Shown here one piece after another: positions 4,845 to 63,069 of a stretch of DNA of 64,000 nucleotides. How positions within the stretch are numbered: the stretch's first letter is position 1; each line of letters begins with the position of its first letter. The position numbers and the translations under genes are program-made. The notes below the pieces were generated by a model. The model was given only the letters and a program-made list of their open reading frames with translations, had not been told where the DNA came from and made no database searches. The DNA comes from a virus: the IMG/VR virus record IMGVR_UViG_3300035070_002905, positions 96,001 to 160,000 of that record; one strand, given 5' to 3'.

Positions 4845-5273
4845 ATGAGAACAAGACAGGGATTTGTCAGCAATAGCTCCAGCAGTAGCTTCTTACTGTA
4901 CGGTTGGTCAATGGATACGGCGGACGCTCTTCCGTATCTATGGGAGGCCGAGGATGACTTCATAGATCACCTCAAGCGCCACCATAACCTCCGCGATAAA
5001 TCGGAGGAGTACATCAAGGAACTGATGGAGAAGCCTGCAGAGGAGATCTACCAACACCTAGACTATGATACCTGGTGTCTATTCGAACCCTTTGCGGCAG
5101 AGCAGGGCGAAGACATAGTATACTTCGGATATAATCTAGGCAATCCCGAGTACATGAACGTCCAGCAACTAATGGAACCTCTGCTGACCCTTGAGATCAT
5201 GCAAGAGGTTGACGATGCGGCGGCCATTGCCGGTCAACGAGCTTCCGTGTACGGAGGCACCGTCTACAACTAG
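4845..5273 (+). CDS. GFVSNSSSSSF-motif protein, copy 3
   Basis: Identical 16-aa N-terminus; AAGGA RBS. Confidence 0.85.
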   Translation: MRTRQGFVSNSSSSSFLLYGWSMDTADALPYLWEAEDDFIDHLKRHHNLRDKSEEYIKELMEKPAEEIYQHLDYDTWCLFEPFAAEQGEDIVYFGYNLGNPEYMNVQQLMEPLLTLEIMQEVDDAAAIAGQRASVYGGTVYN

Positions 5274-5281
5274 GAGATAGA

Positions 5282-5695
5282 ATGAGGACACGCCAGGGCT
5301 TTGTAAGCAACTCGTCGTCCTCTTCCTTCATCATCGTGACTCACTCAGAGAATATCCATCCGGATGTCGTGGGTGATGTCACGTGGTTCGATGAGGATAG
5401 AGTGCGTGAAGAGATTAAAGAGGTCTACGGATGGGATGTCGTAGATACGTTATACAACGAGTGGTTCGATAAGAATCCTCACCGAGAAGATCCACCCTCT
5501 ATGTGGGATAAGTGGTCTACCCTATCTGAAGAAGAGCAGTGGAAGCGCTTATTTAATATACCTGAAGCCCGCGAACTGTACGACTATATGATGGACGCAC
5601 TGGACGCCGGGGACTTTGTAGCTGAAGTCGAGATGGACTATAACGACCCGAGCGAACCCATCCGACAACACCATGAAATTATTAAGGAATACTAA
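5282..5695 (+). CDS. GFVSNSSSSSF-motif protein, copy 4
   Basis: Identical 16-aa N-terminus; AGGAG RBS. Confidence 0.85.
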   Translation: MRTRQGFVSNSSSSSFIIVTHSENIHPDVVGDVTWFDEDRVREEIKEVYGWDVVDTLYNEWFDKNPHREDPPSMWDKWSTLSEEEQWKRLFNIPEARELYDYMMDALDAGDFVAEVEMDYNDPSEPIRQHHEIIKEY

Positions 5696-6882
5696 TGATT
5701 AATCCAAAGAAACACATCCTACCTGAAGCAATGCTGAAAAACTGTGAAGTATTCTACTCTGGCCACGGCGTGACCATCTACCAGGCAGGCGAGTGGCGCT
5801 TCGCCCGTTCTGAAGCGTACAACTACGACTACAACACGGTAGACGGCTTCTTCCGTCGCTGGGGTGCCACGCTAGACGAAGACCCTACCTTCGCACCACT
5901 TAACGAGATCCTCGACATCGAGGTGACCACCATTTGTAACGGTCCGGCTAACCGTCTGTGTTCCTTCTGTTACAAAAACAATAACCCTAACGGCTACAAC
6001 ATGCCACTGGCAGACTTCCAGGCGGTAATCGATAAGATGCCCTGGTTGACTCAGTGTGCACTAGGCGCCGATGCTCAGGGTACAACCAACCCCGACCTCA
6101 TCCCGATGATGCAGTACGCACGCAGTAAGGGTATCATCCCGAACCTGACGATCGCCGATGTAAGCGAGGAGGTTGCCGAGCAGCTAGCTTCAGTCGCCGG
6201 AGCTGTAGCTGTGTCTGTGTACCGACATGCAGGCTACGACGTCGCGTATGACTCTGTGAAGCGTCTAACCGACGCAGGCATGACTCAGGTCAACTTACAC
6301 TTCATGATCTCTCAGAGAACGTTAGAGGACGCCTATGAGGTATGTCGAGCCATTAAAGAAGATCCTCGTCTTGCTAATGTCAACGCCGTCGTATTTCTCA
6401 GCCTTAAACAGAAAGGCCGTGGACAGCGACACGAGTACGTTACTGAGACTGAATACAAGGAACTGGTGGATCACTGTCTGGCAGAAGGCATTCCCTTTGG
6501 CTTTGACAGCTGTTCTGCTCCTATATTTCTGGGCGCAGTTCGTGAGCATCCATCGTATGATCGTTTCCGCGAAATGGCAGAAGACTGTGAGTCAACCCTC
6601 TTCAGTTCATACATCAACGAACACGGACACTTCTTCCCTTGCTCCTTTACCGAGAAGTGGGTCGAAGGTGGATGGCTAGAAGGCATCGACGTGCTGGCTG
6701 CCGATGACTTCGTGACCGACGTATGGAATCACCAGCGTACCTGCGACTTTAAAGACGTCCTACGCGATAACACCGATGACCTTGGCTGTCGTCAGTGCCC
6801 GGCGTACGATGTGTGCGGTCGTCCGACTCGAGTGTACGATAGTGAAGTAGAAATTGTTGACTTGACTAGCTACAAGCGATAA
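5695..6882 (+). CDS. radical SAM protein with SPASM/twitch-like C-terminal domain
   Basis: DIEVTTICNGPANRLCSFCY (CX7CX2C variant of CX3CX2C); C-terminal C...YINEHGHFFPCSF...CRQCPAYDVC. Confidence 0.85.
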   Translation: MINPKKHILPEAMLKNCEVFYSGHGVTIYQAGEWRFARSEAYNYDYNTVDGFFRRWGATLDEDPTFAPLNEILDIEVTTICNGPANRLCSFCYKNNNPNGYNMPLADFQAVIDKMPWLTQCALGADAQGTTNPDLIPMMQYARSKGIIPNLTIADVSEEVAEQLASVAGAVAVSVYRHAGYDVAYDSVKRLTDAGMTQVNLHFMISQRTLEDAYEVCRAIKEDPRLANVNAVVFLSLKQKGRGQRHEYVTETEYKELVDHCLAEGIPFGFDSCSAPIFLGAVREHPSYDRFREMAEDCESTLFSSYINEHGHFFPCSFTEKWVEGGWLEGIDVLAADDFVTDVWNHQRTCDFKDVLRDNTDDLGCRQCPAYDVCGRPTRVYDSEVEIVDLTSYKR

Positions 6883-7467: not shown

Positions 7468-7506
7468 AACCTGCTATAAATAAAGTGTAAGGAGTTATAC
7501 ACTCCT
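7452..7506 (+). promoter_or_regulatory. putative phage promoter (TTCAACA-N14-GCTATAA plus downstream hairpin)
   Basis: TTCAACA 7452-7458, GCTATAAATAA from 7473, hairpin AGGAGT-TATAC-ACTCCT 7490-7506; motif recurs six times in the window. Confidence 0.7.
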
Positions 7507-7513
7507 GCGGAAA

Positions 7514-7569
7514 TTCAACATTCTAGTTATTTCCGTTATAATTAAGTTGTAAGGTAAACTACACCTTAC
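7514..7569 (+). promoter_or_regulatory. putative phage promoter, tandem second copy
   Basis: TTCAACA 7514-7520, GTTATAATTAA from 7535, hairpin GTAAGGT-AAACTAC-ACCTTAC 7549-7569. Confidence 0.7.
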
Positions 7570-7638
7570 TCGGAGCAAGTGCTCCAACAGGATTAGCAAT
7601 AGCGATCCTGCAAAATGTCAACTATAGGAATCTGACAT

Positions 7639-8739
7639 ATGACTACTAAGATCATCATCCCTGGCCGTGAAGCACAAACTCTAACTGGCATGACTATGGA
7701 CGTAGAGCAAGTTAAAGCAGCTTACGCTGGTCAAATTGATCTTTCTGCGTATAACGTCGACACTCAAGTTGTTGATGGCGAAACAGTAATCACATTCTCA
7801 AACCGCACTGGTACAAAAGGAACTGACATGCAGGTAATTAACGAAGCAGGCTCTAACCCGGTATTCACTACTATCATCATTCCGGGCCGTGAAGCTCAAA
7901 CTATTCCAGGCATGGCGCTTGGCGTAGACGATGTAGTAGCAGCATTCGCCGGTCAAATCGATCTGAAGAACTACGAGTCTCAAGTGGCTCAAGAAGAAAC
8001 AGGTCCAGTAATCACATTCGCAAACCGTACAGGCACAAAAGGAAATGGCATGCAAGTAATCAACGAAGCAGGTTCTAACCCAGTATTCACAACTATCATC
8101 ATCCCAGGTCGTGAAGCACAAACGATCCCTGGTATGGCGCTAGGCGTGGACGACGTGGTTGCCGCTTTCGCTGGTCAAATCGACCTTAAGAACTACGAGT
8201 CTTCAGTTGCTACTGAAGATACTGGTCCAGTGATCACCTTCAGCAACCGTACTGGTACTAAAGGTAATGACCTGTTCGACGTGCTTTCACAGATGATGGC
8301 ATCTCCTACTACGGTAGAAGAAGAGCCGGCTGCTCCAGCTGGTCCTACTGGTACTAAGATCCTGATCCCAGGCCGTGAAGCTCAGGTAATCCCTGGTATG
8401 CTGATGGACGCTGAGCAAGTTAAAGGTGCTTACGCTGGTCAGATCGATCTATCTGCTTACAACGTTGACGTTAGCGTTGACGGTGACTTCCAGGTAGTGA
8501 CGTTCACTAACCGCACTGGTACTAAAGGTGCTGTCCTAGACGACAGCGCTGCACTTAAGCACACTAAGATCGTGATCCCTGGTCGTGAAGCTCAGGTGAT
8601 CAGCAACATGGTACTTGACGCTTCTGGCGTTAAAGCTGCTTACGCTGGTCAGATCGATCTATCTGCGTACAACGTAGAAGAAACTGAAGACGGTGACACG
8701 TTAGTAGTAACGTTCTCTAACCGTACAGGTACTAAAGGC
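7639..8739 (+). repeat. five intragenic Ubl repeats: 7639-7821, 7822-8043, 8044-8265, 8266-8529, 8530-8739
   Basis: Each unit ends in the codons for NRTGTKG; units 2 and 3 are 74 aa each and near-identical in protein but synonymously diverged. Confidence 0.95.
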
Positions 8740-8745
8740 GCTTAA
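7639..8745 (+). CDS. poly-ubiquitin-like precursor: five tandem prokaryotic Ubl (PRTRC protein C / Prok-Ub-like) domains
   Basis: Five ~60-aa units IIPGREAQ...AGQIDL..Y...TF.NRTGTKG; GTKG is the C-terminal signature of PRTRC protein C; E2, JAB and E1 genes follow. Confidence 0.85.
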   Translation: MTTKIIIPGREAQTLTGMTMDVEQVKAAYAGQIDLSAYNVDTQVVDGETVITFSNRTGTKGTDMQVINEAGSNPVFTTIIIPGREAQTIPGMALGVDDVVAAFAGQIDLKNYESQVAQEETGPVITFANRTGTKGNGMQVINEAGSNPVFTTIIIPGREAQTIPGMALGVDDVVAAFAGQIDLKNYESSVATEDTGPVITFSNRTGTKGNDLFDVLSQMMASPTTVEEEPAAPAGPTGTKILIPGREAQVIPGMLMDAEQVKGAYAGQIDLSAYNVDVSVDGDFQVVTFTNRTGTKGAVLDDSAALKHTKIVIPGREAQVISNMVLDASGVKAAYAGQIDLSAYNVEETEDGDTLVVTFSNRTGTKGA

Positions 8746-8760
8746 GCCTTAGGTATTCTG

Positions 8761-8791
8761 GAAGGCGCCCCTCCGGCGCCTTTCTTTTTTT
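8761..8791 (+). terminator. Rho-independent terminator after the poly-Ubl gene
   Basis: AAGGCGCC-CCTCC-GGCGCCTT followed by a T-rich run. Confidence 0.85.
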
Positions 8792-8809
8792 GCTAATCCA
8801 GGAGTAACC

Positions 8810-9409
8810 ATGGACTATCCACAACCAAGTGACGTACAGAAGCAGATCAATGATGCTATCGTAGCCTGTCTAGATAATAACATCATCCGTTCTCTGGAAG
8901 ACATCCTGGAGCCGATTATCGGTGAGCAGAAAGGAGTCTTCAATGGTTCAATCAAATATCGTGGCGATATCAGCGATGCACAGATGCTGGTTAAACAGTA
9001 TGTAGGCATGATGCCTCTACAACAGATCTGCGGTCGTATCCTCCACGACGATACAATCATCCGCCTATGGAAGGGCGAGAGCTGTGTGGTAACTGAATCC
9101 CTGATGAACACTACATTCGTTCGTCGTGGTGAAGATCACCTCAAGCTTATCTTGGTCACCGTAAATGACCCGGCTACAGTAGACTACGTGAGTAATCTAG
9201 ACTGTGCGTACAACATCGAGCTAAATGAAATGCCGGAAGGCCGCCTTGGTATTGAGCTGCAAGTTCCAGTCAGCACTACCAACGCCGATCACTACTTCCA
9301 ATTCCTACAGCGTCTACCAGCTATCCTAGACGTATACTACACTCTACTGACGAGGTTCCCTACATGTCAAATCTCTTCGATCAATTTTCCGGACTTTCTG
9401 AATTCGTAG
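8810..9409 (+). CDS. hypothetical protein in the Ubl-conjugation operon
   Basis: 199 aa; AGGAG RBS; no motif recognised. Confidence 0.75.
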   Translation: MDYPQPSDVQKQINDAIVACLDNNIIRSLEDILEPIIGEQKGVFNGSIKYRGDISDAQMLVKQYVGMMPLQQICGRILHDDTIIRLWKGESCVVTESLMNTTFVRRGEDHLKLILVTVNDPATVDYVSNLDCAYNIELNEMPEGRLGIELQVPVSTTNADHYFQFLQRLPAILDVYYTLLTRFPTCQISSINFPDFLNS

Positions 9410-9648
9410 ATCTGCGTCACGAGTCGTATATGTCTCTGAACAATCTACTAGAAGGCCTTCGTAGCTTCAACGGCACACCTTCAGAAGCTCTTGAGATGGT
9501 TACTACAAGTAACTGGCAAGAAGGGCTTAACGAATACCAGCGACAGCAACAGCGTGTTCGTAACGGTAACCAACAAACGATCCGCGCTATGCAGCAGATC
9601 ACTTTCCGCGACTGTAAACCTGTAATGAGAGGAATCATCTATGTCTAG
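9364..9648 (+). CDS. small hypothetical protein in the Ubl operon (alternative start 9430)
   Basis: Fills the gap between 8810-9409 and the E2 gene; 8-nt overlap with E2. Confidence 0.55.
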   Translation: MSNLFDQFSGLSEFVDLRHESYMSLNNLLEGLRSFNGTPSEALEMVTTSNWQEGLNEYQRQQQRVRNGNQQTIRAMQQITFRDCKPVMRGIIYV

Positions 9649-10333
9649 TCATATCGACGCTCGTATCCACGCAGAAGGCTACGTATCTATCAGTAACGAA
9701 GCTGGTGCAAACAAGAACATCTCGATCCCTGACTTCTTGCGTAAGATCAACCAGCTTGAGCAGGAGAATGGCAACCAGACTCAGGAAGTAGGCGAGGCGT
9801 ATACTTACCCGTCGTCTATCCACTCGGTCCAGCGTACCACTGATGGTTTCATTGTAAGCCTGTACTTCAACGAGCGTGAAGCTAACATACGTCACTCGTA
9901 CGGTGAAAGCTACCTGATCACTGTACCTAACGTAATGATCCGTCTGGAGCTACGTAAGGTTAACGGCGAAGAGCGCTACTCGATTGTAGATGCACGCTTC
10001 TACGCTACCGATAAGAACCGCATCAGCTTGCCTACGGTATTCCCTAGCGAGCCACGCAGTCAAGAACATATCTGGGCACTACCATTCCCTAATATGTATT
10101 CCGAAGGTAACATGTGCTACGGCGGTAACAGCATGCCTAGCGTAATCTACCGTGATTGGACTGTACTAGACTCTGTCTACCAGACTCTGATCATCGATGC
10201 ATCATGTAACAACGACTTGAACGTACCGTCAGTTAACGATGGTCCGTCTAATGGCGACGACTGGTTACAAGTCCTAGCCGACCACCACTCTCGCGGTGAT
10301 GGTTTCCCTTACACTCGTCTATACAACTACTAG
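9641..10333 (+). CDS. E2-like (UBC-fold) conjugating enzyme, Prok-E2 family D / PRTRC protein B-like
   Basis: ALPFPNMYSEGNMCYG matches the P-F-x-N-x-Y-x-x-G-x-x-C-x-G catalytic-Cys motif; operon context. Confidence 0.8.
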   Translation: MSSHIDARIHAEGYVSISNEAGANKNISIPDFLRKINQLEQENGNQTQEVGEAYTYPSSIHSVQRTTDGFIVSLYFNEREANIRHSYGESYLITVPNVMIRLELRKVNGEERYSIVDARFYATDKNRISLPTVFPSEPRSQEHIWALPFPNMYSEGNMCYGGNSMPSVIYRDWTVLDSVYQTLIIDASCNNDLNVPSVNDGPSNGDDWLQVLADHHSRGDGFPYTRLYNY

Positions 10334-11479: not shown

Positions 11480-12025
11480 ATGGAATTAGAACTGACACAG
11501 GGATGTGTCACTCTTATTGATGATGAAGATGCCGACCTTGTGTCGGCTCACAAGTGGTATCCTTTATACGTACCAAGTAGAGATAAATACATGGTGATAC
11601 GTAATAGGAAGATGGTGAACTACGAGAGGAGTGGTACTAGGTATCTGCATACCTTCCTACTGCCTGTTAAAGATGGATATTCTGTAGATCATATAAACAG
11701 GGATCCTCTAGATAACCGACGTAGTAATTTACGAGTAGCTAATAAGCAGCAGCAGCAGCTTAACACTGGACCTCGCAGGAATTCACCTATCCCGTATAAA
11801 GGAGTATCTTATAAGAAGACTAATAGCAATTACGTAGCTCAGATGTATGCACATGGTAGGAATATACATATAGGATCATTCGATTCTCCTACTGATGCAG
11901 CATTGGCGTATGATGAATACTCATTAGACTATTGGTCTAACATCCCCGACGATCCTATCTCAGGGTCGTATACACAATTCCTATATTTAAACTTTCCGGA
12001 GAAACACAATGGCACTATTGCGTAA
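11480..12025 (+). CDS. HNH homing endonuclease with C-terminal AP2 domain
   Basis: VDHINRDPLDNRRSNLR (HNH); YKGVS...YVAQ...HIGSF...AALAYD (AP2); visibly more AT-rich than its flanks. Confidence 0.9.
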   Translation: MELELTQGCVTLIDDEDADLVSAHKWYPLYVPSRDKYMVIRNRKMVNYERSGTRYLHTFLLPVKDGYSVDHINRDPLDNRRSNLRVANKQQQQLNTGPRRNSPIPYKGVSYKKTNSNYVAQMYAHGRNIHIGSFDSPTDAALAYDEYSLDYWSNIPDDPISGSYTQFLYLNFPEKHNGTIA

Positions 12026-13025
12026 ATTTGATTTACTTTTGCAGGACGTTATCGTCGTGGGTTGTGGTGGTACAGGTTCACGTACAATCCCTATGATCGT
12101 GCAGCTGTTGAAGACTGCTCCTGCAGCGATCGGTCCCGCGCTATACCTAGTGGATGGTGATGAGGTTGAGGCTAAGAACCTTGCCCGTCAGAACTTCATC
12201 GAGCCTGATATCGGTCGTAACAAGGCGGTTGTACTAGCTGAGCGCTACGGCCAGGCTATGGACTTCCCTGTACATGCACATCCGCAGTTCGTTACGGACG
12301 GCGGTAACATCGTGGGTGACATTAACCGATCGGCTAGCTCTAACGACTTCCGTCAGCTAGGCCAGATGCGTAAGATCTGGATCCTTGCAGTAGATAGCAT
12401 CAAGGCTCGTATGATGGTACTTCAACAGGCCGGTCACAACGATGTAATCATCGATGCCGGTAATGAAGATACATTCGGTCAGGTGAGCATCTACGATAAC
12501 ATCCACCTAGAGTGCCTCCAGGGCGACTCTACGCCGGAGTTAGGTCCCTTCCAAGGGGATTACGCACTGCCGTTCATTCCGTCGCCCCTGACGTCGTACA
12601 TCGCCGCTGTGATCAATCCTCCGGTTGCTACCGGTTCGTGTGCAGATCTAGATCAGTCTCTAGCGATCAACAATATGATGTCTGCGGGCATCGTTGGTAT
12701 GCTGCAGAACCTGATCTACAACAACGAGTTCTATACCTGTACTAACTCGTACGACCTGCACCGCGGTAACCAGTCGACTTCAATGAACCACCTCTGGTTC
12801 AACGAGACGATGGGCCGTCAGCGCTTCGAGAAGCAGGAGTTCGGTCGTCTTGGCGATGATCTACCTAACCGTCTGTACGATCACCTGTCTAGCCACTCTC
12901 AGAACTTCCTGATGGCGAAGAACATGGAGACTCGTCGTGGTTCAATGGTACATGAACTGCTTTGCGATATCCGCTCTAAGACTACTGCCGTAGATCCAGC
13001 CGTCCTGGCTGCTCTAAAGCTATAA
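12009..13025 (+). CDS. ThiF/E1-like activating enzyme (PRTRC ThiF-like)
   Basis: VVGCGGTG; DGDEVEAKNLARQNF...GRNKA; AVDS; DAGNE; putative catalytic GSCADLDQSLAIN. Confidence 0.92.
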   Translation: MALLRKFDLLLQDVIVVGCGGTGSRTIPMIVQLLKTAPAAIGPALYLVDGDEVEAKNLARQNFIEPDIGRNKAVVLAERYGQAMDFPVHAHPQFVTDGGNIVGDINRSASSNDFRQLGQMRKIWILAVDSIKARMMVLQQAGHNDVIIDAGNEDTFGQVSIYDNIHLECLQGDSTPELGPFQGDYALPFIPSPLTSYIAAVINPPVATGSCADLDQSLAINNMMSAGIVGMLQNLIYNNEFYTCTNSYDLHRGNQSTSMNHLWFNETMGRQRFEKQEFGRLGDDLPNRLYDHLSSHSQNFLMAKNMETRRGSMVHELLCDIRSKTTAVDPAVLAALKL

Positions 13026-13026
13026 C

Positions 13027-13058
13027 AAAAAGGCCAGCTCCGTGAGGGGCTGGCCTTT
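13027..13058. terminator. bidirectional terminator between the convergent Ubl operon and virion module
   Basis: AAAAAGGCCAGCTCC-GTGA-GGGGCTGGCCTTT. Confidence 0.85.
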
Positions 13059-13084
13059 AGTTCTTCTTATTTTTTCGCTTGTCC

Positions 13085-13444
13085 CTAGTTCCTAGCCTCC
13101 AGACGCGTCACCTGCTTTCTTAGTTCCGATAGCTCCCTAGGTACTTCTGATAATGCTTTTAACGTGGCAGATATTTCAGCCATATTAACCTCCGCGGCAG
13201 TTGATCGGTTCTGCGTCTCTCTTAGGCTTATCACTATGCCTTCTATATTTTTAGTATTGGTAGCTGCAATGAACTCCAGCTTATCGATCCTCGATACGCT
13301 ATCTGCTCGATGGTTTATGCTACTCTCTGCTGCATTCAATCTAACTTCAAGCTTCGCAATTGAGTTTTTTACAGTAGTCCATGCACCGAAAAGGGCTGTT
13401 ATTCCAACGCCCAGGGGTACTAAATTGGCTATTAACCATTCCAT
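13085..13444 (-). CDS. membrane-anchored coiled-coil protein, lysis-associated (holin/antiholin-like)
   Basis: One N-terminal hydrophobic helix then a heptad coiled coil; next to the holin-like gene; AGGAG RBS. Confidence 0.55.
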   Translation of the reverse strand: MEWLIANLVPLGVGITALFGAWTTVKNSIAKLEVRLNAAESSINHRADSVSRIDKLEFIAATNTKNIEGIVISLRETQNRSTAAEVNMAEISATLKALSEVPRELSELRKQVTRLEARN

Positions 13445-13453
13445 ATAATTCTC

Positions 13454-13876
13454 CTACTTAAACTTTCCTACCCATTGTTTCACCACTGCTTCTACCAGTG
13501 GAATAACGAGTCGACGATATCCCCATACAGACACTAGCATAAGCCCAAGGGCAATCTGATAGTATTGAGGCATGCTTTCCAGCACTGTGAATCCCGCCTG
13601 AATATGTGGTACCATCCCAGGAAAGAAAGCAAGAGGCACCGGTAAAAGGAACAGGTAGAAAGAGATATCATCCATCCAACCGGCAGCTGCGCGAGCCCCA
13701 GTATCCTGAGTAATATCTGCAGTCTGTCCTGCTTGTATTGCCTGGATCTTAGACTCCAGGTTGATCTTTTTTAGCTCATCCTTGCGCTCTTTCTGCGCGG
13801 CTTTAATCTTCTGTCCTTCAGTAAAGTAACCTCCGACAGCACTAGCCACCTCACCTACCCATCCGAATCCTAACAT
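13454..13876 (-). CDS. putative holin (3TM/GTA-type holin-like)
   Basis: WMDD-TM-P...LESMPQYYQ-TM-GYR architecture; ATG 13876 has an AGGAG RBS (ORF track start 13882). Confidence 0.65.
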   Translation of the reverse strand: MLGFGWVGEVASAVGGYFTEGQKIKAAQKERKDELKKINLESKIQAIQAGQTADITQDTGARAAAGWMDDISFYLFLLPVPLAFFPGMVPHIQAGFTVLESMPQYYQIALGLMLVSVWGYRRLVIPLVEAVVKQWVGKFK

Positions 13877-60931: not shown

Positions 60932-61378
60932 ATGTTCGATCTATTCGGATTCTGGTTTGGTGTAACCGTATTATCAGCACCTATGCTAATTCTTGGCTTG
61001 ATCCTATCGCTGGCTCTAGCCGATCTATTGGTTAAAGACATGAGCCGTGGTCGTATGGACGGCTGCAGTCATCTGTTCCCGGGCAGCAGTACTCTGCAGG
61101 CTATCCTGAAGGACTTCGGTAAAGGTGCCAAAGGCTTCTTCGAGATCCTGGTACTATTCGTAAGTGCGTTCTTCTGGGTGATGTGGTTATTCGCATGGAT
61201 TAAGCATGATATTACCATGGTTAAATTCGTAAGCCGAGCTGCAGAAGGCCTAGCGCCATACCTAGGTTGGGTTGGTGCAGTAGTAGTTCCTGTGTTCTTG
61301 ATTCGCGTAGTTGGTCGTAAGATGTTCGATGCGTACTACAAAGTTGAAACAATCCTGGCTGATAAGGAAGGTAAATAA
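60932..61378 (+). CDS. 3-TM membrane protein, tandem paralogue 1
   Basis: MFDLFGFW...LAPYLGW...DAYYK. Confidence 0.85.
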   Translation: MFDLFGFWFGVTVLSAPMLILGLILSLALADLLVKDMSRGRMDGCSHLFPGSSTLQAILKDFGKGAKGFFEILVLFVSAFFWVMWLFAWIKHDITMVKFVSRAAEGLAPYLGWVGAVVVPVFLIRVVGRKMFDAYYKVETILADKEGK

Positions 61379-61800
61379 TGTTAGATCTATTAGGTTTCTG
61401 GACTGCGGTAACTGTCTTCACCCTACCGGTGCTGTTCCTATTCAGTATCGTTATGATTATCGTAACTAACTGTACGGTACATTGGGCTACTCGTGGTCGC
61501 TGTCAAGACTTCTGCTGCAAGGTTCCAGTTCTAAACAAAGTGATCGCCTGGATCGAAGCGAGTAACGACGGCCTATTCACGCTGGTCTTCTGCCTAGGTG
61601 TAGCAGAAGTAATCATGGGGCTGGTCATTTCAGTAGATAATGGTATCTCTGTAGTGCAGCTAGTGGCTGTCCTATCAGAAGCTACTGCTCCGTTCTTCTC
61701 GTGGATCGGTATCCTAGCTCTATTCGTCATTGCTATTCGTGTAGTCTCAGATGCATACTACAAGATTGCAGATAAGCTTGAAAAGTTGGAGAGTAAGTAA
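61378..61800 (+). CDS. 3-TM membrane protein, tandem paralogue 2
   Basis: MLDLLGFWT...APFFSW...DAYYKI; TAATG coupling. Confidence 0.85.
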   Translation: MLDLLGFWTAVTVFTLPVLFLFSIVMIIVTNCTVHWATRGRCQDFCCKVPVLNKVIAWIEASNDGLFTLVFCLGVAEVIMGLVISVDNGISVVQLVAVLSEATAPFFSWIGILALFVIAIRVVSDAYYKIADKLEKLESK

Positions 61801-62222
61801 TGTTTGATCTATTAGGTTTCTGGACTGCGGTAACTCTACTTACTGGTCCTACTCTAATCATATCTATGGCACTCCTAGCGCTTGCTCTTAACGGAGCAGG
61901 TGGCTGGATTACCCGTGGTCGCTGCGAGAATCTAGGTGAGAGCCTGCCTATCCTAAAGCAGTTCTGTAAGGGGTTAGATGATGCGCCAGAGCCGCTAGGC
62001 ATGGCTATAATCATAGTAGGCGTGGTCTTCGGGCTTGTCCTCGGGCTTGTCGCTGTAAATGCTGGCCTCAGTCTAGTGCACATCGTGTCTACTCTAGCGG
62101 AAGCTCTGGCTCCGTACTTCGGATGGATCGGTGTGGTTATCCTAGTATCGTTCGGTGCACGTGCCGTGTCTGATGCTTACTACAAAATCGCTACTAAACT
62201 TGAAAACTTGGAGAATAAATAA
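61800..62222 (+). CDS. 3-TM membrane protein, tandem paralogue 3
   Basis: MFDLLGFWT...LAPYFGW...DAYYKI. Confidence 0.85.
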   Translation: MFDLLGFWTAVTLLTGPTLIISMALLALALNGAGGWITRGRCENLGESLPILKQFCKGLDDAPEPLGMAIIIVGVVFGLVLGLVAVNAGLSLVHIVSTLAEALAPYFGWIGVVILVSFGARAVSDAYYKIATKLENLENK

Positions 62223-62644
62223 TGTTAGATCTATTTGCATTCTGGACAAACACTACAATCATGATTATCCCGGTACTAATCTGCTGGAGCGTAATCGTAG
62301 TATCCTTCTTCGACTGGCGCATCGACTGCATTACCGACGGTAAGCACAAGAAGTTCCTGTACAACCGTATCCCTGGTATGAAGTCGGCTGACCAATGGAT
62401 GTGTCAGAACGACGGCCTAGGCTTCATCGTATTCCTGATCTGTGTTGCAGCAGGCTTCGGTCTACCGGTCTCGGCGTTCATGCTAGATACTTCAATGGTG
62501 CATATCATTGCTACTCTAGCCGAGTGGTCTGCACCGTACACTGCATGGGTTGACATCGTGTTAGTGGCATGGTTTAGTGTTGAAGTTGTACTTAAGCGAC
62601 TAATCTCGCTTATCGATCGTATCGAAAACTTGGAGAATAAGTAA
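62222..62644 (+). CDS. 3-TM membrane protein, tandem paralogue 4
   Basis: MLDLFAFWT...APYTAW. Confidence 0.85.
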   Translation: MLDLFAFWTNTTIMIIPVLICWSVIVVSFFDWRIDCITDGKHKKFLYNRIPGMKSADQWMCQNDGLGFIVFLICVAAGFGLPVSAFMLDTSMVHIIATLAEWSAPYTAWVDIVLVAWFSVEVVLKRLISLIDRIENLENK

Positions 62645-63069
62645 TGTTTGATCTATTAGGTTTCTGGACTACTCTAACTCTACTAGTTGCACCTGTATTC
62701 TGGGTGGCAGGCGCGATCGTCGTAAGTCTGGTCGACTGGGAAGTGGGTCGTATCTCTAACGGTAAGACTACTAACTTCACCGATCGATTCGACTTCCTAG
62801 ATATCTTCAAGCATAACCTGTTCCTGCTTCCGATACAGCGTGGTTTTCCGCTAGTACTCTGGACAGCTGCGTCGCTGGTCATGCTTCTGGTCTCTGTTAT
62901 TGCATACCTGGAAGACGGTTACTACATCGTCCATATGTATGCAGGTCTATCAGAGCTACTGGCTCCGGTATTCGGCTGGGTCGGTCTACTGCTAGGTGGC
63001 TACTTCCTAGTGCACTTCGTGCTTAAGAAGATGTACACGTTGAGCGAAAAGATTGATCGCTTAAGCTAG
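62644..63069 (+). CDS. 3-TM membrane protein, tandem paralogue 5
   Basis: MFDLLGFWT...LAPVFGW. Confidence 0.85.
   Translation: MFDLLGFWTTLTLLVAPVFWVAGAIVVSLVDWEVGRISNGKTTNFTDRFDFLDIFKHNLFLLPIQRGFPLVLWTAASLVMLLVSVIAYLEDGYYIVHMYAGLSELLAPVFGWVGLLLGGYFLVHFVLKKMYTLSEKIDRLS

Follow-up and report, generated by a model that had tools for sequence, protein, structure and literature searches.

Recent work has linked the conjugation of ubiquitin-like proteins (Ubl) by bacteria to defence against phages, as in the Bil, CBASS Cap2/Cap3 and Bub systems. Here we describe a Ubl gene carried by a virus. The window analysed, meaning the whole stretch of 64,000 nucleotides (nt) at positions 96,001 to 160,000 of IMG/VR record IMGVR_UViG_3300035070_002905, is part of a 172-kb virus record that is 95% complete. 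At positions 7639-8745 of its plus strand lies a gene, here called the poly-Ubl gene, whose product (P0001) is a head-to-tail chain of five Ubl units. It is the first gene of a co-oriented cassette in the order poly-Ubl, open reading frame (ORF) X, ORF Y, E2-like protein, JAB peptidase, an HNH insert and a ThiF-type E1. The best-supported reading of this arrangement, and one we consider reasonably likely, is that the JAB would cleave after each TKG of the chain, releasing units that the E1 and E2-like protein would conjugate.

It is already known that bacterial conjugation operons contain tandem Ubl domains and that JAB enzymes pre-process Ubls. Such tandem domains were called 'reminiscent of poly-ubiquitin' in 2006 (PMC1779556), and the multi-beta-grasp Ubls of bacterial conjugation operons were characterised in 2024 (PMC11601603). 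The Ubl2 and Ubl3 proteins of Bub and type II Bil operons, and the mlr6139-type triple Ubl, resemble P0001 in carrying several beta-grasp domains per chain within a conjugation operon. However, they are described as single multi-domain modifiers forming dimers and Ca-dependent filaments (PMC11601603), whereas the family in the window repeats the complete C-terminal motif in each unit, ranges from 1 to 5 units and shows no inter-unit packing when modelled. Bil (BilABCD) has the same four activities (Ubl, E2, JAB and E1), and its JAB, BilC, trims the single Ala after the reactive Gly of BilA, cutting between Gly97 and Ala98, and also cuts a linear Ubl-GFP fusion (PMC10557695). In contrast to Bil, which is a host defence, the window cassette is phage-encoded, and its proteins show no sequence membership of Bil in PADLOC; the tested reactive Gly of BilA is the C-terminal Gly97 (PMC10557695), whereas every unit in the window has a full tail. 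Exact cleavage of a linear fusion is also known for HvJAMM1, which cuts SAMP1-MoaE precisely after the last Gly (PMC4443979). In phages lambda and T1, tail assembly protein I has a Ubl-like domain with a conserved Gly and adjoins the JAB-containing protein K, with release by cleavage predicted (PMC1779556). The lambda and T1 pair, however, lacks E1 and E2, has a single-domain Ubl and sits in the tail module, whereas the window cassette lies among non-structural genes.

The PRTRC system is likewise comparable, as a PRTRC model is the best family for all four components of the cassette (JAB, E 8e-21; E1, E 1.2e-20; E2 and Ubl weak). A small Ubl whose C-terminal Gly is conserved is common to the two, and each is carried on mobile elements. 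Nevertheless, the window proteins fall below the cut-offs of PRTRC_A (74.5 vs 101.8 bits), PRTRC_B (13.9 vs 131.45) and PRTRC_ThiF (73.9 vs 144.75), and neither PRTRC_parB nor ParB_N had a match in the whole 172-kb record. PRTRC_D, E and F had no NCBIfam match among the cassette proteins, and two small ORFs (X and Y), with no detected relation to them, stand in their place. The window Ubl is a 5-mer, whereas the PRTRC_C model is a single domain of 66 positions, and the carrier is a lytic-looking large phage. Given the scores under the equivalog cut-offs and the lack of ParB, we call the cassette PRTRC-like but not a PRTRC system. The literature searched held no reported function for PRTRC, no description of a phage-borne PRTRC-like cassette or of tandem Prok_Ub units each with a C-terminal motif, and no experimental study of such a phage Ubl system.

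Repeat structure of the poly-Ubl gene

Translation of 7639-8745 on the plus strand is uninterrupted and yields 368 amino acids (aa). The gene and its flanking signals are laid out as follows.

7639..8745, plus strand: poly-Ubl gene, 368 aa (P0001), five Prok_Ub-type units, then Ala and stop
7639..7821 (aa 1-61), plus strand: unit 1, 'last'-type subtype, ending in NRTGTKG
7822..8043 (aa 62-135), plus strand: linker with MQVINEAGSNPVF leader and unit 2, 'mid'-type
8044..8265 (aa 136-209), plus strand: linker with MQVINEAGSNPVF leader and unit 3, 'mid'-type
8266..8529 (aa 210-297), plus strand: linker (short helix and Pro/Glu/Ala stretch) and unit 4, 'last'-type
8530..8739 (aa 298-367), plus strand: short linker and unit 5, 'last'-type, ending in NRTGTKG
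8740..8745, plus strand: one-residue cap Ala368 (GCT, 8740-8742) and TAA (8743-8745)
7515..7542, plus strand: promoter-like site (TCAACA, 16 nt, TATAAT), a pattern match only, from a consensus scan
8760..8792, plus strand: terminator-like GC hairpin directly 3' of the gene, 10-pair stem with 7 GC pairs, then TTTTTTT

The heptapeptide NRTGTKG occurs five times in P0001, ending at residues 61, 135, 209, 297 and 367, and chance is ruled out as its source because these are exact copies within 59-aa repeats. The 59-aa core units are 54-93% identical in pairwise comparison. Units 2 and 3 form one subtype at 93% identity, while units 1, 4 and 5 are 66-75% identical among themselves and 54-63% identical to units 2 and 3; the two subtypes also separate on a tree of 110 units. 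Units 2 and 3 have in common the 14-residue leader MQVINEAGSNPVFT, and a Pro/Glu/Ala-rich linker (residues 210-238) precedes unit 4. All inter-unit linkers of P0001 are 10-29 residues long, with no direct abutment of units. An earlier reading of the window from its letters alone (hereafter the sequence-only reading) had described five units each ending in NRTGTKG and followed by Ala and stop, two subtypes (1, 4 and 5 against 2 and 3), a MQVINEAGSNPVF leader before units 2 and 3, and a Pro/Glu/Ala linker before unit 4; the translation, the identities and the tree confirmed this description.

At the DNA level, units 2 and 3 are 80% identical, with differences that are nearly all synonymous (ratio of non-synonymous to synonymous divergence, dN/dS, 0.05; dS ~1.2), and strong purifying selection acts on the two copies of this duplicated unit. 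In two other public runs, contigs that are ~93% identical span the same five-unit gene (P0003 among the homologues) and differ from the window gene in length only by two losses of 3 nt in the linker that follows unit 3. Given the divergence of units 2 and 3 and the presence of the same gene in other assemblies, the repeats are neither recent nor an assembly artefact. The sequencing runs with this sequence are marine or seawater metagenome contigs, at a share of at most 0.33, and none of the listed runs holding it is an RNA run.

Upstream of the gene, sites like the promoter-like one at 7515..7542 were rarer in the region than in its shuffles in the consensus scan. Two similar short inverted repeats (gtgtaagg...tacac type, within 7483-7570) flank this site, and they may be regulatory elements.

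Homologues and the free form of the unit

A DNA search of the region against deposited phages returned no match, and a protein-level search of the same phages matched Vibrio phages D181, D148 and D69. The order Ubl, X, Y, E2, JAB, E1 recurs in D181, a cultured relative with a three-unit version, in the IMG/VR contig L007, in the distant Logan contig L003, and in L010, a 216-kb contig of a bacterial assembly. In D181 and L007 the cassette adjoins ribonucleotide reductase genes.

The tail is the best kept part of the unit. The motif x[RK]TGTKG ends every unit in all 41 close homologues, except that P0006 and P0019 each contain a single internal unit that is degenerate. When 110 units were aligned from a set of 40 proteins, no variation was seen at G57, K59 and G60, and T56 and T58 were conserved at 90% or more, although over their whole length the units share only 36-76% identity with unit 1. 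Conservation of the internal GTKG junctions, whose lack the sequence-only reading had named as a refutation, therefore held across the close homologues, apart from those two units, and it held in distant phage cassettes as well. The degenerate unit of P0006 and P0019 always lies just before an acidic linker and the last unit.

What follows the last Gly is far more variable. The protein stops there, without a cap, in 17 of the 41 close homologues, and the other caps among them are A, K, E, N, DA, EA, KA, ALA, KDQS, INYSK and a 20-aa tail. Such freely varying caps are what would be expected of a removable extension.

We also scanned IMG/VR using the JAB, which gave 160 relatives, with 80 loci kept. 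A recognisable Ubl lies ~2-3 kb upstream on the same strand at 41 of these 80 loci, many of them on contigs of ~100-190 kb. The distinct Ubls found there (n=31) comprise 24 single-unit, six two-unit and one five-unit protein, and 26 of the 31 stop exactly at the glycine of ...TG[TN]KG. The halves of the two-unit proteins are 58-99% identical (94-99% in four of the six), and Ala is usually next after the internal Gly. A profile search with the 110 units adds two-, three-, four- and five-unit forms, some with near-identical abutting copies; such copies are seen in the distant relatives P0053, P0047 and L028, and in P0053 five units abut with a 2-aa spacer. Comparison of unit number across related phages, as the sequence-only reading had suggested, thus gave 1, 2, 3, 4 or 5 units among cassettes with a related JAB.

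Because the mono-unit forms end exactly at ...TG[TN]KG, the internal tails are copies of a real C-terminus. On these alignments, the free form of the Ubl ends at the TKG Gly, tandem fusion happened repeatedly, and the internal copies keep the full C-terminus. By the same count, the earlier claim that conjugation of any unit must await processing does not hold generally, as both the 17 uncapped close homologues and the 26 Ubls of the wider set already end at Gly.

Fold and family of the unit

An AlphaFold2 model of unit 1 had a predicted local distance difference test score (pLDDT) of 92.6 and shows a strand-strand-helix-strand-strand arrangement followed by a free, less ordered seven-residue tail. 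In the VIA wide search, the best structure matches to the unit were MoaD, ThiS, ubiquitin, SUMO, ISG15, Urm1 and BubA (Z 3.3-5.0; root-mean-square deviation 2.5-3.6 over 50-59 residues), which are weak scores for so small a domain. Foldseek against the PDB with the 60-residue unit gave no match at E <=0.001. From its modelled fold, the unit is accepted as a minimal beta-grasp Ubl.

Family membership was approached through the profile of 110 units, which was searched against 1.84 billion representative proteins and found only 57, including P0053 and P0061. Both of these pass the PRTRC_C cut-off of 45.95 bits (77.7 and 71.5 bits, respectively). By this profile evidence P0001 belongs to the Prok_Ub / PRTRC_C family, the link being indirect, from the unit profile to P0053 and P0061. 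Traits of the family are present in the conserved C-terminal Gly (G60) and in the E1, E2 and JAB neighbours.

Models of the chain and of the JAB-unit complex

The full-length model of P0001 shows five separate units, with a predicted template modelling score (pTM) of 0.23. Residues 57-74, 131-148, 206-233 and 293-304, which make up the junctions, have pLDDT <50 and are modelled as disordered, and the linker of unit 4 is modelled with a helix at 212-219. The low junction pLDDT together with the pTM suggests that the junctions are exposed and that there is no confident packing between units.

A complex of the JAB (residues 1-235) with one unit was modelled with an ipSAE (an interface score computed from predicted aligned errors) of 0.80 (runs 0.79-0.81), and the best of three controls scored 0.00. 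Among 80 solved complexes 58 attained the mark of 0.80, as did 2 of 110 mismatched pairs; these counts are approximate, since our own alignments were used. At least 95% of contacts agree among the runs, and the partner pLDDT is at least 89. At the modelled interface, tail residues 54-60 of the unit touch JAB residues 107, 154, 156, 164 and 166-167. The model supports binding of the tail by the JAB in a productive pose, although its pass may be due in part to likeness to solved JAB-Ubl complexes.

Proposed processing and its alternatives

We propose that the cassette JAB would bind each unit and cut after the last Gly of every ...RTGTKG tail, which includes removal of the Ala cap. As many as five Ubl molecules would result, each with its C-terminal Gly free and most with the upstream linker retained as an N-terminal extension. 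The ThiF-type E1 would adenylate the freed Gly, and the E2-like protein would take over the Ubl on Cys159 and pass it to lysines of phage or host proteins; the JAB may also undo conjugation. With five units per chain and a terminator-like hairpin after the Ubl gene, the tag would be made in large excess over the enzymes. Cleavage after each TKG is favoured because single-unit forms end at the TKG Gly, nearly every internal unit retains its tail, the junctions are modelled as disordered, and the modelled tail lies in the JAB active site. The sequence-only reading had already assigned this cleavage to the JAB, and that assignment has gained the BilC precedent and the complex model; the cleavage itself we infer, as we do activation, conjugation and any functional difference between the two unit subtypes.

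Several observations weigh against this proposal. P0001 by itself scores just under the cut-off of Pfam Prok_Ub (PF14454; E 2.3e-5, 24.5 bits, cut-off 25) and below that of NCBIfam PRTRC_C (TIGR03738; 15.2 bits, cut-off 45.95). The units do not behave as interchangeable copies: first, middle and last units cluster across phages, with 8 label changes vs 52 with shuffled labels, and three-unit homologues align to units 2, 3 and 5 of P0001, whose own five units comprise two of the 'mid' type and three of the 'last' type, the 'first' type being absent. The linkers are under purifying selection and are more than free spacers: homologues share a GD..V.N-type linker, as well as a helix and acidic stretch before the last unit, and the two copies of the 14-aa leader differ by 5 synonymous and 0 non-synonymous changes. 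The degenerate internal units of P0006 (residues ~160-225) and P0019 (L007 3262-4353, residues ~186-245) lack the TGTKG tail and, having lost it, would not be releasable as conjugatable units. The candidate E1 Cys, which the window, D181 and L007 carry within TGSCADLDQS, has no counterpart in the distant L003. Moreover, the presence of a JAB alone does not imply precursor processing, because a JAB also lies beside single-unit Ubls ending at Gly.

Much of this would be equally at home in an uncleaved multi-beta-grasp modifier, like ISG15 or the Ubl2 and Ubl3 proteins of Bil and Bub operons, in which only the Ala would be trimmed, the whole chain would be activated and conjugated via Gly367, and the internal tails would function as linkers or as sites of contact. 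Ubls with two or three beta-grasp domains are common in bacterial conjugation operons (PMC11601603, PMC1779556), a fixed multi-domain protein would show the same old, position-specific unit types and conserved linkers, and the degenerate units of P0006 and P0019 would fit in such a chain. Nevertheless, we consider this unlikely for P0001, since its internal tails vary no more than the terminal tail does, despite being modelled as disordered and outside the fold. Unit number also changes from 1 to 5 among related cassettes of the same gene order, near-identical fresh duplications recur, and no confident packing of the units was modelled. A chain that repeats a binding surface several times along flexible linkers could instead act as a multivalent decoy or scaffold that is never conjugated, its five tails occupying a peptidase, E1 or Ubl-binding protein of the host or the phage, for instance against a host Ubl-based defence, or it could polymerise, as Ubl3 proteins do in forming filaments (PMC11601603). 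One report describes phages facing a Ubl-conjugating host defence (10.1101/2023.09.04.556158). A decoy is improbable, however, for a gene that shares a single co-oriented cassette with E1, E2-like and JAB genes whose catalytic motifs are all intact; cassettes of the same gene order also exist with mono-unit versions, and the invariant terminal Gly points to activation.

Separate products could also arise from internal translation starts in place of proteolysis, as junctions 1/2 (7816-7831) and 2/3 (8038-8053) read AAAGGA, 6 nt and ATG (Met64 and Met138), which is Shine-Dalgarno-like. Such starts would, however, give a nested series of products sharing their end at residue 368 instead of single units. 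Junctions 3/4 and 4/5 have the codon GGT and lack an ATG, and Met is absent from the linkers in most homologues. We set this highly improbable idea aside because the starts are not conserved and no single units would result. Still less probable is that P0001 is a repeat-containing virion protein, structural or decorating, with no more than a resemblance to a Ubl. The minus strand does carry a large block of structural-looking genes from ~13.9 kb of the window, and small beta-grasp-like folds also match immunoglobulin-binding domains, but the poly-Ubl gene is on the opposite strand, within an enzyme cassette that lies beside ribonucleotide reductase genes in relatives, and the PRTRC_C family link, the invariant terminal Gly and the JAB model all indicate a Ubl.

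If the chain is cleaved after each TKG, as we favour, the products would be non-identical and most would have a conserved N-terminal extension. A more specific version, which is possible but which we hold with some doubt, is that the phage JAB cuts the polyprotein into distinct Ubl species (first, middle and last, with their linker extensions) that are attached to different host or virion targets, in a conjugation pathway belonging to large marine phages themselves.

Comparison with eukaryotic polyubiquitin

The analogy to polyubiquitin drawn in the sequence-only reading stands in part. As in eukaryotic polyubiquitin of the UBB/UBC/UBI4 type, head-to-tail beta-grasp units each end in an activation motif, an extra residue follows the last unit, and deubiquitinase-type processing is predicted here. 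In contrast, the window units are non-identical (54-93%), fall into two old subtypes, are not kept alike by concerted evolution and are not interchangeable. They are separated by conserved linkers of 10-29 residues where eukaryotic units have direct Gly-Met joints, they end in RTGTKG where eukaryotic units end in LRLRGG, and processing is presumed to be by a JAMM metallopeptidase. The cap, moreover, is missing in many homologues, as counted above. Given the position-specific unit types and conserved linkers, the eukaryotic design is not simply reproduced in this system, and its tandem layout probably arose independently of eukaryotic polyubiquitin.

Other genes of the cassette

Downstream of the poly-Ubl gene, the cassette contains the following features.

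8810..9409, plus strand: ORF X, 199 aa, position kept in related cassettes
9364..9648, plus strand: ORF Y, 94 aa, overlapping X and E2
9641..10333, plus strand: E2-like protein, 230 aa, PFPNxY-x5-C-xGG with Cys159 as candidate catalytic residue
10346..11479, plus strand: JAB/JAMM metallopeptidase, 377 aa, Glu107 and H154-S-H156-x7-S164-xx-D167
11480..12025, plus strand: HNH_3 + AP2 homing-endonuclease-like gene (Pfam) between JAB and E1
12009..13025, plus strand: ThiF-type E1, 338 aa, GCGGTG, NLARQNF and a candidate Cys in TGSCADLDQS
13029..13058, plus strand: terminator-like hairpin closing the cassette, 13-pair stem with 8 GC pairs

No cassette protein had a match in PHROGs. In PADLOC, the Ubl, X, Y, E2 and JAB had no match, and the E1 matched only weakly (E 2.5e-7 or worse) to models named E1-E2. 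ORFs X and Y could not be assigned to any family in Pfam, NCBIfam, PHROGs or PADLOC, and neither had an NCBIfam match at E up to 0.1, a result with which distant kinship to PRTRC_D, E and F is still compatible. An Atlas search with ORF X by sequence features gave no usable match, and a structure search with its poor Atlas model (pLDDT 0.44) gave only TM (template modelling) scores <=0.38 by query. Counterparts of ORF X, matched by position alone, have 233 aa in D181 and 173 aa in L007, and small ORFs of 95 and 90 aa lie at the position of ORF Y in these two relatives.

The E2-like protein scores below the cut-off of Pfam Prok-E2_D (E 5.8e-4, 20.1 bits, cut-off 25). Its PFPNMY-x5-C159-YGG motif is invariant in a three-way alignment of E2-like proteins, and its orthologues in L003 and L010 carry PF14460. 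The JAB matches Pfam Prok-JAB (E 3e-10) as well as PRTRC_A, and all of 54 homologues keep His154, Ser155, His156, Ser164 and Asp167, with Glu107 conserved at 90% or more. With phmmer against PDB sequences, the JAB had no match and the E1 matched only MccB, at its N-terminus. The E1 matches Pfam ThiF (E 1.7e-13), and its best family is PRTRC_ThiF. Judged by these alignments, the catalytic motifs of the E2, JAB and E1 are intact and conserved. The head-to-tail Ubl multimer of the sequence-only reading was borne out in this setting too, as a Prok_Ub / PRTRC_C beta-grasp unit adjoining an E2-like protein, JAB and E1 with intact motifs.

The HNH_3 + AP2 gene is missing between JAB and E1 in both L007 and D181, which suggests that a mobile element inserted here recently without disrupting the cassette. 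It overlaps the E1 start by 17 nt.

In D181 (L001 11250-12263), the annotated E1 start (MAERYS) excludes the nucleotide-binding loop. The frame is open for 86 codons upstream of that start and encodes GCGGTG and NLSRQNF, so the D181 E1 is probably longer than annotated or has an unusual start. In the distant five-unit cassette of L003, the E1 (12983-13864) has no Cys at the candidate catalytic position; from this sequence, either the candidate Cys is not the catalytic one, or this branch may transfer directly from the adenylate.

Other groups of adjacent ORFs in the window

Two further sets of adjacent ORFs were observed. At 4845-5695, two adjacent ORFs share the start MRTRQGFVSNSSSSSF before diverging; immediately downstream of them is a radical-SAM/SPASM-like protein at 5695-6882 (phrog_7293, E 2e-175), and the layout of 4845-6882 resembles precursor peptides beside a maturase. 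At 61378-63069 on the plus strand, four consecutive abutting ORFs are of near-equal size (140-141 aa), and a fifth ORF of 148 aa lies just upstream (60932-61378). The stretch 60932-63069 is probably a tandem array of paralogous genes.

Implications

The cassette is a mirror image of the bacterial defences: here a large marine phage brings the complete set of Ubl, E2, JAB and E1. Its poly-Ubl is also a clean and cheap biochemical handle, with one substrate, five predicted cleavage sites and one candidate protease. If processing is as proposed, a tandem-precursor modifier would have evolved at least twice, and it would be asked what the phage tags in its host or in itself. If, further, the chain gives rise to distinct Ubl species, this would be a virus-encoded 'polyubiquitin' in prokaryotes, of independent origin, that might counter host Ubl-based defence.

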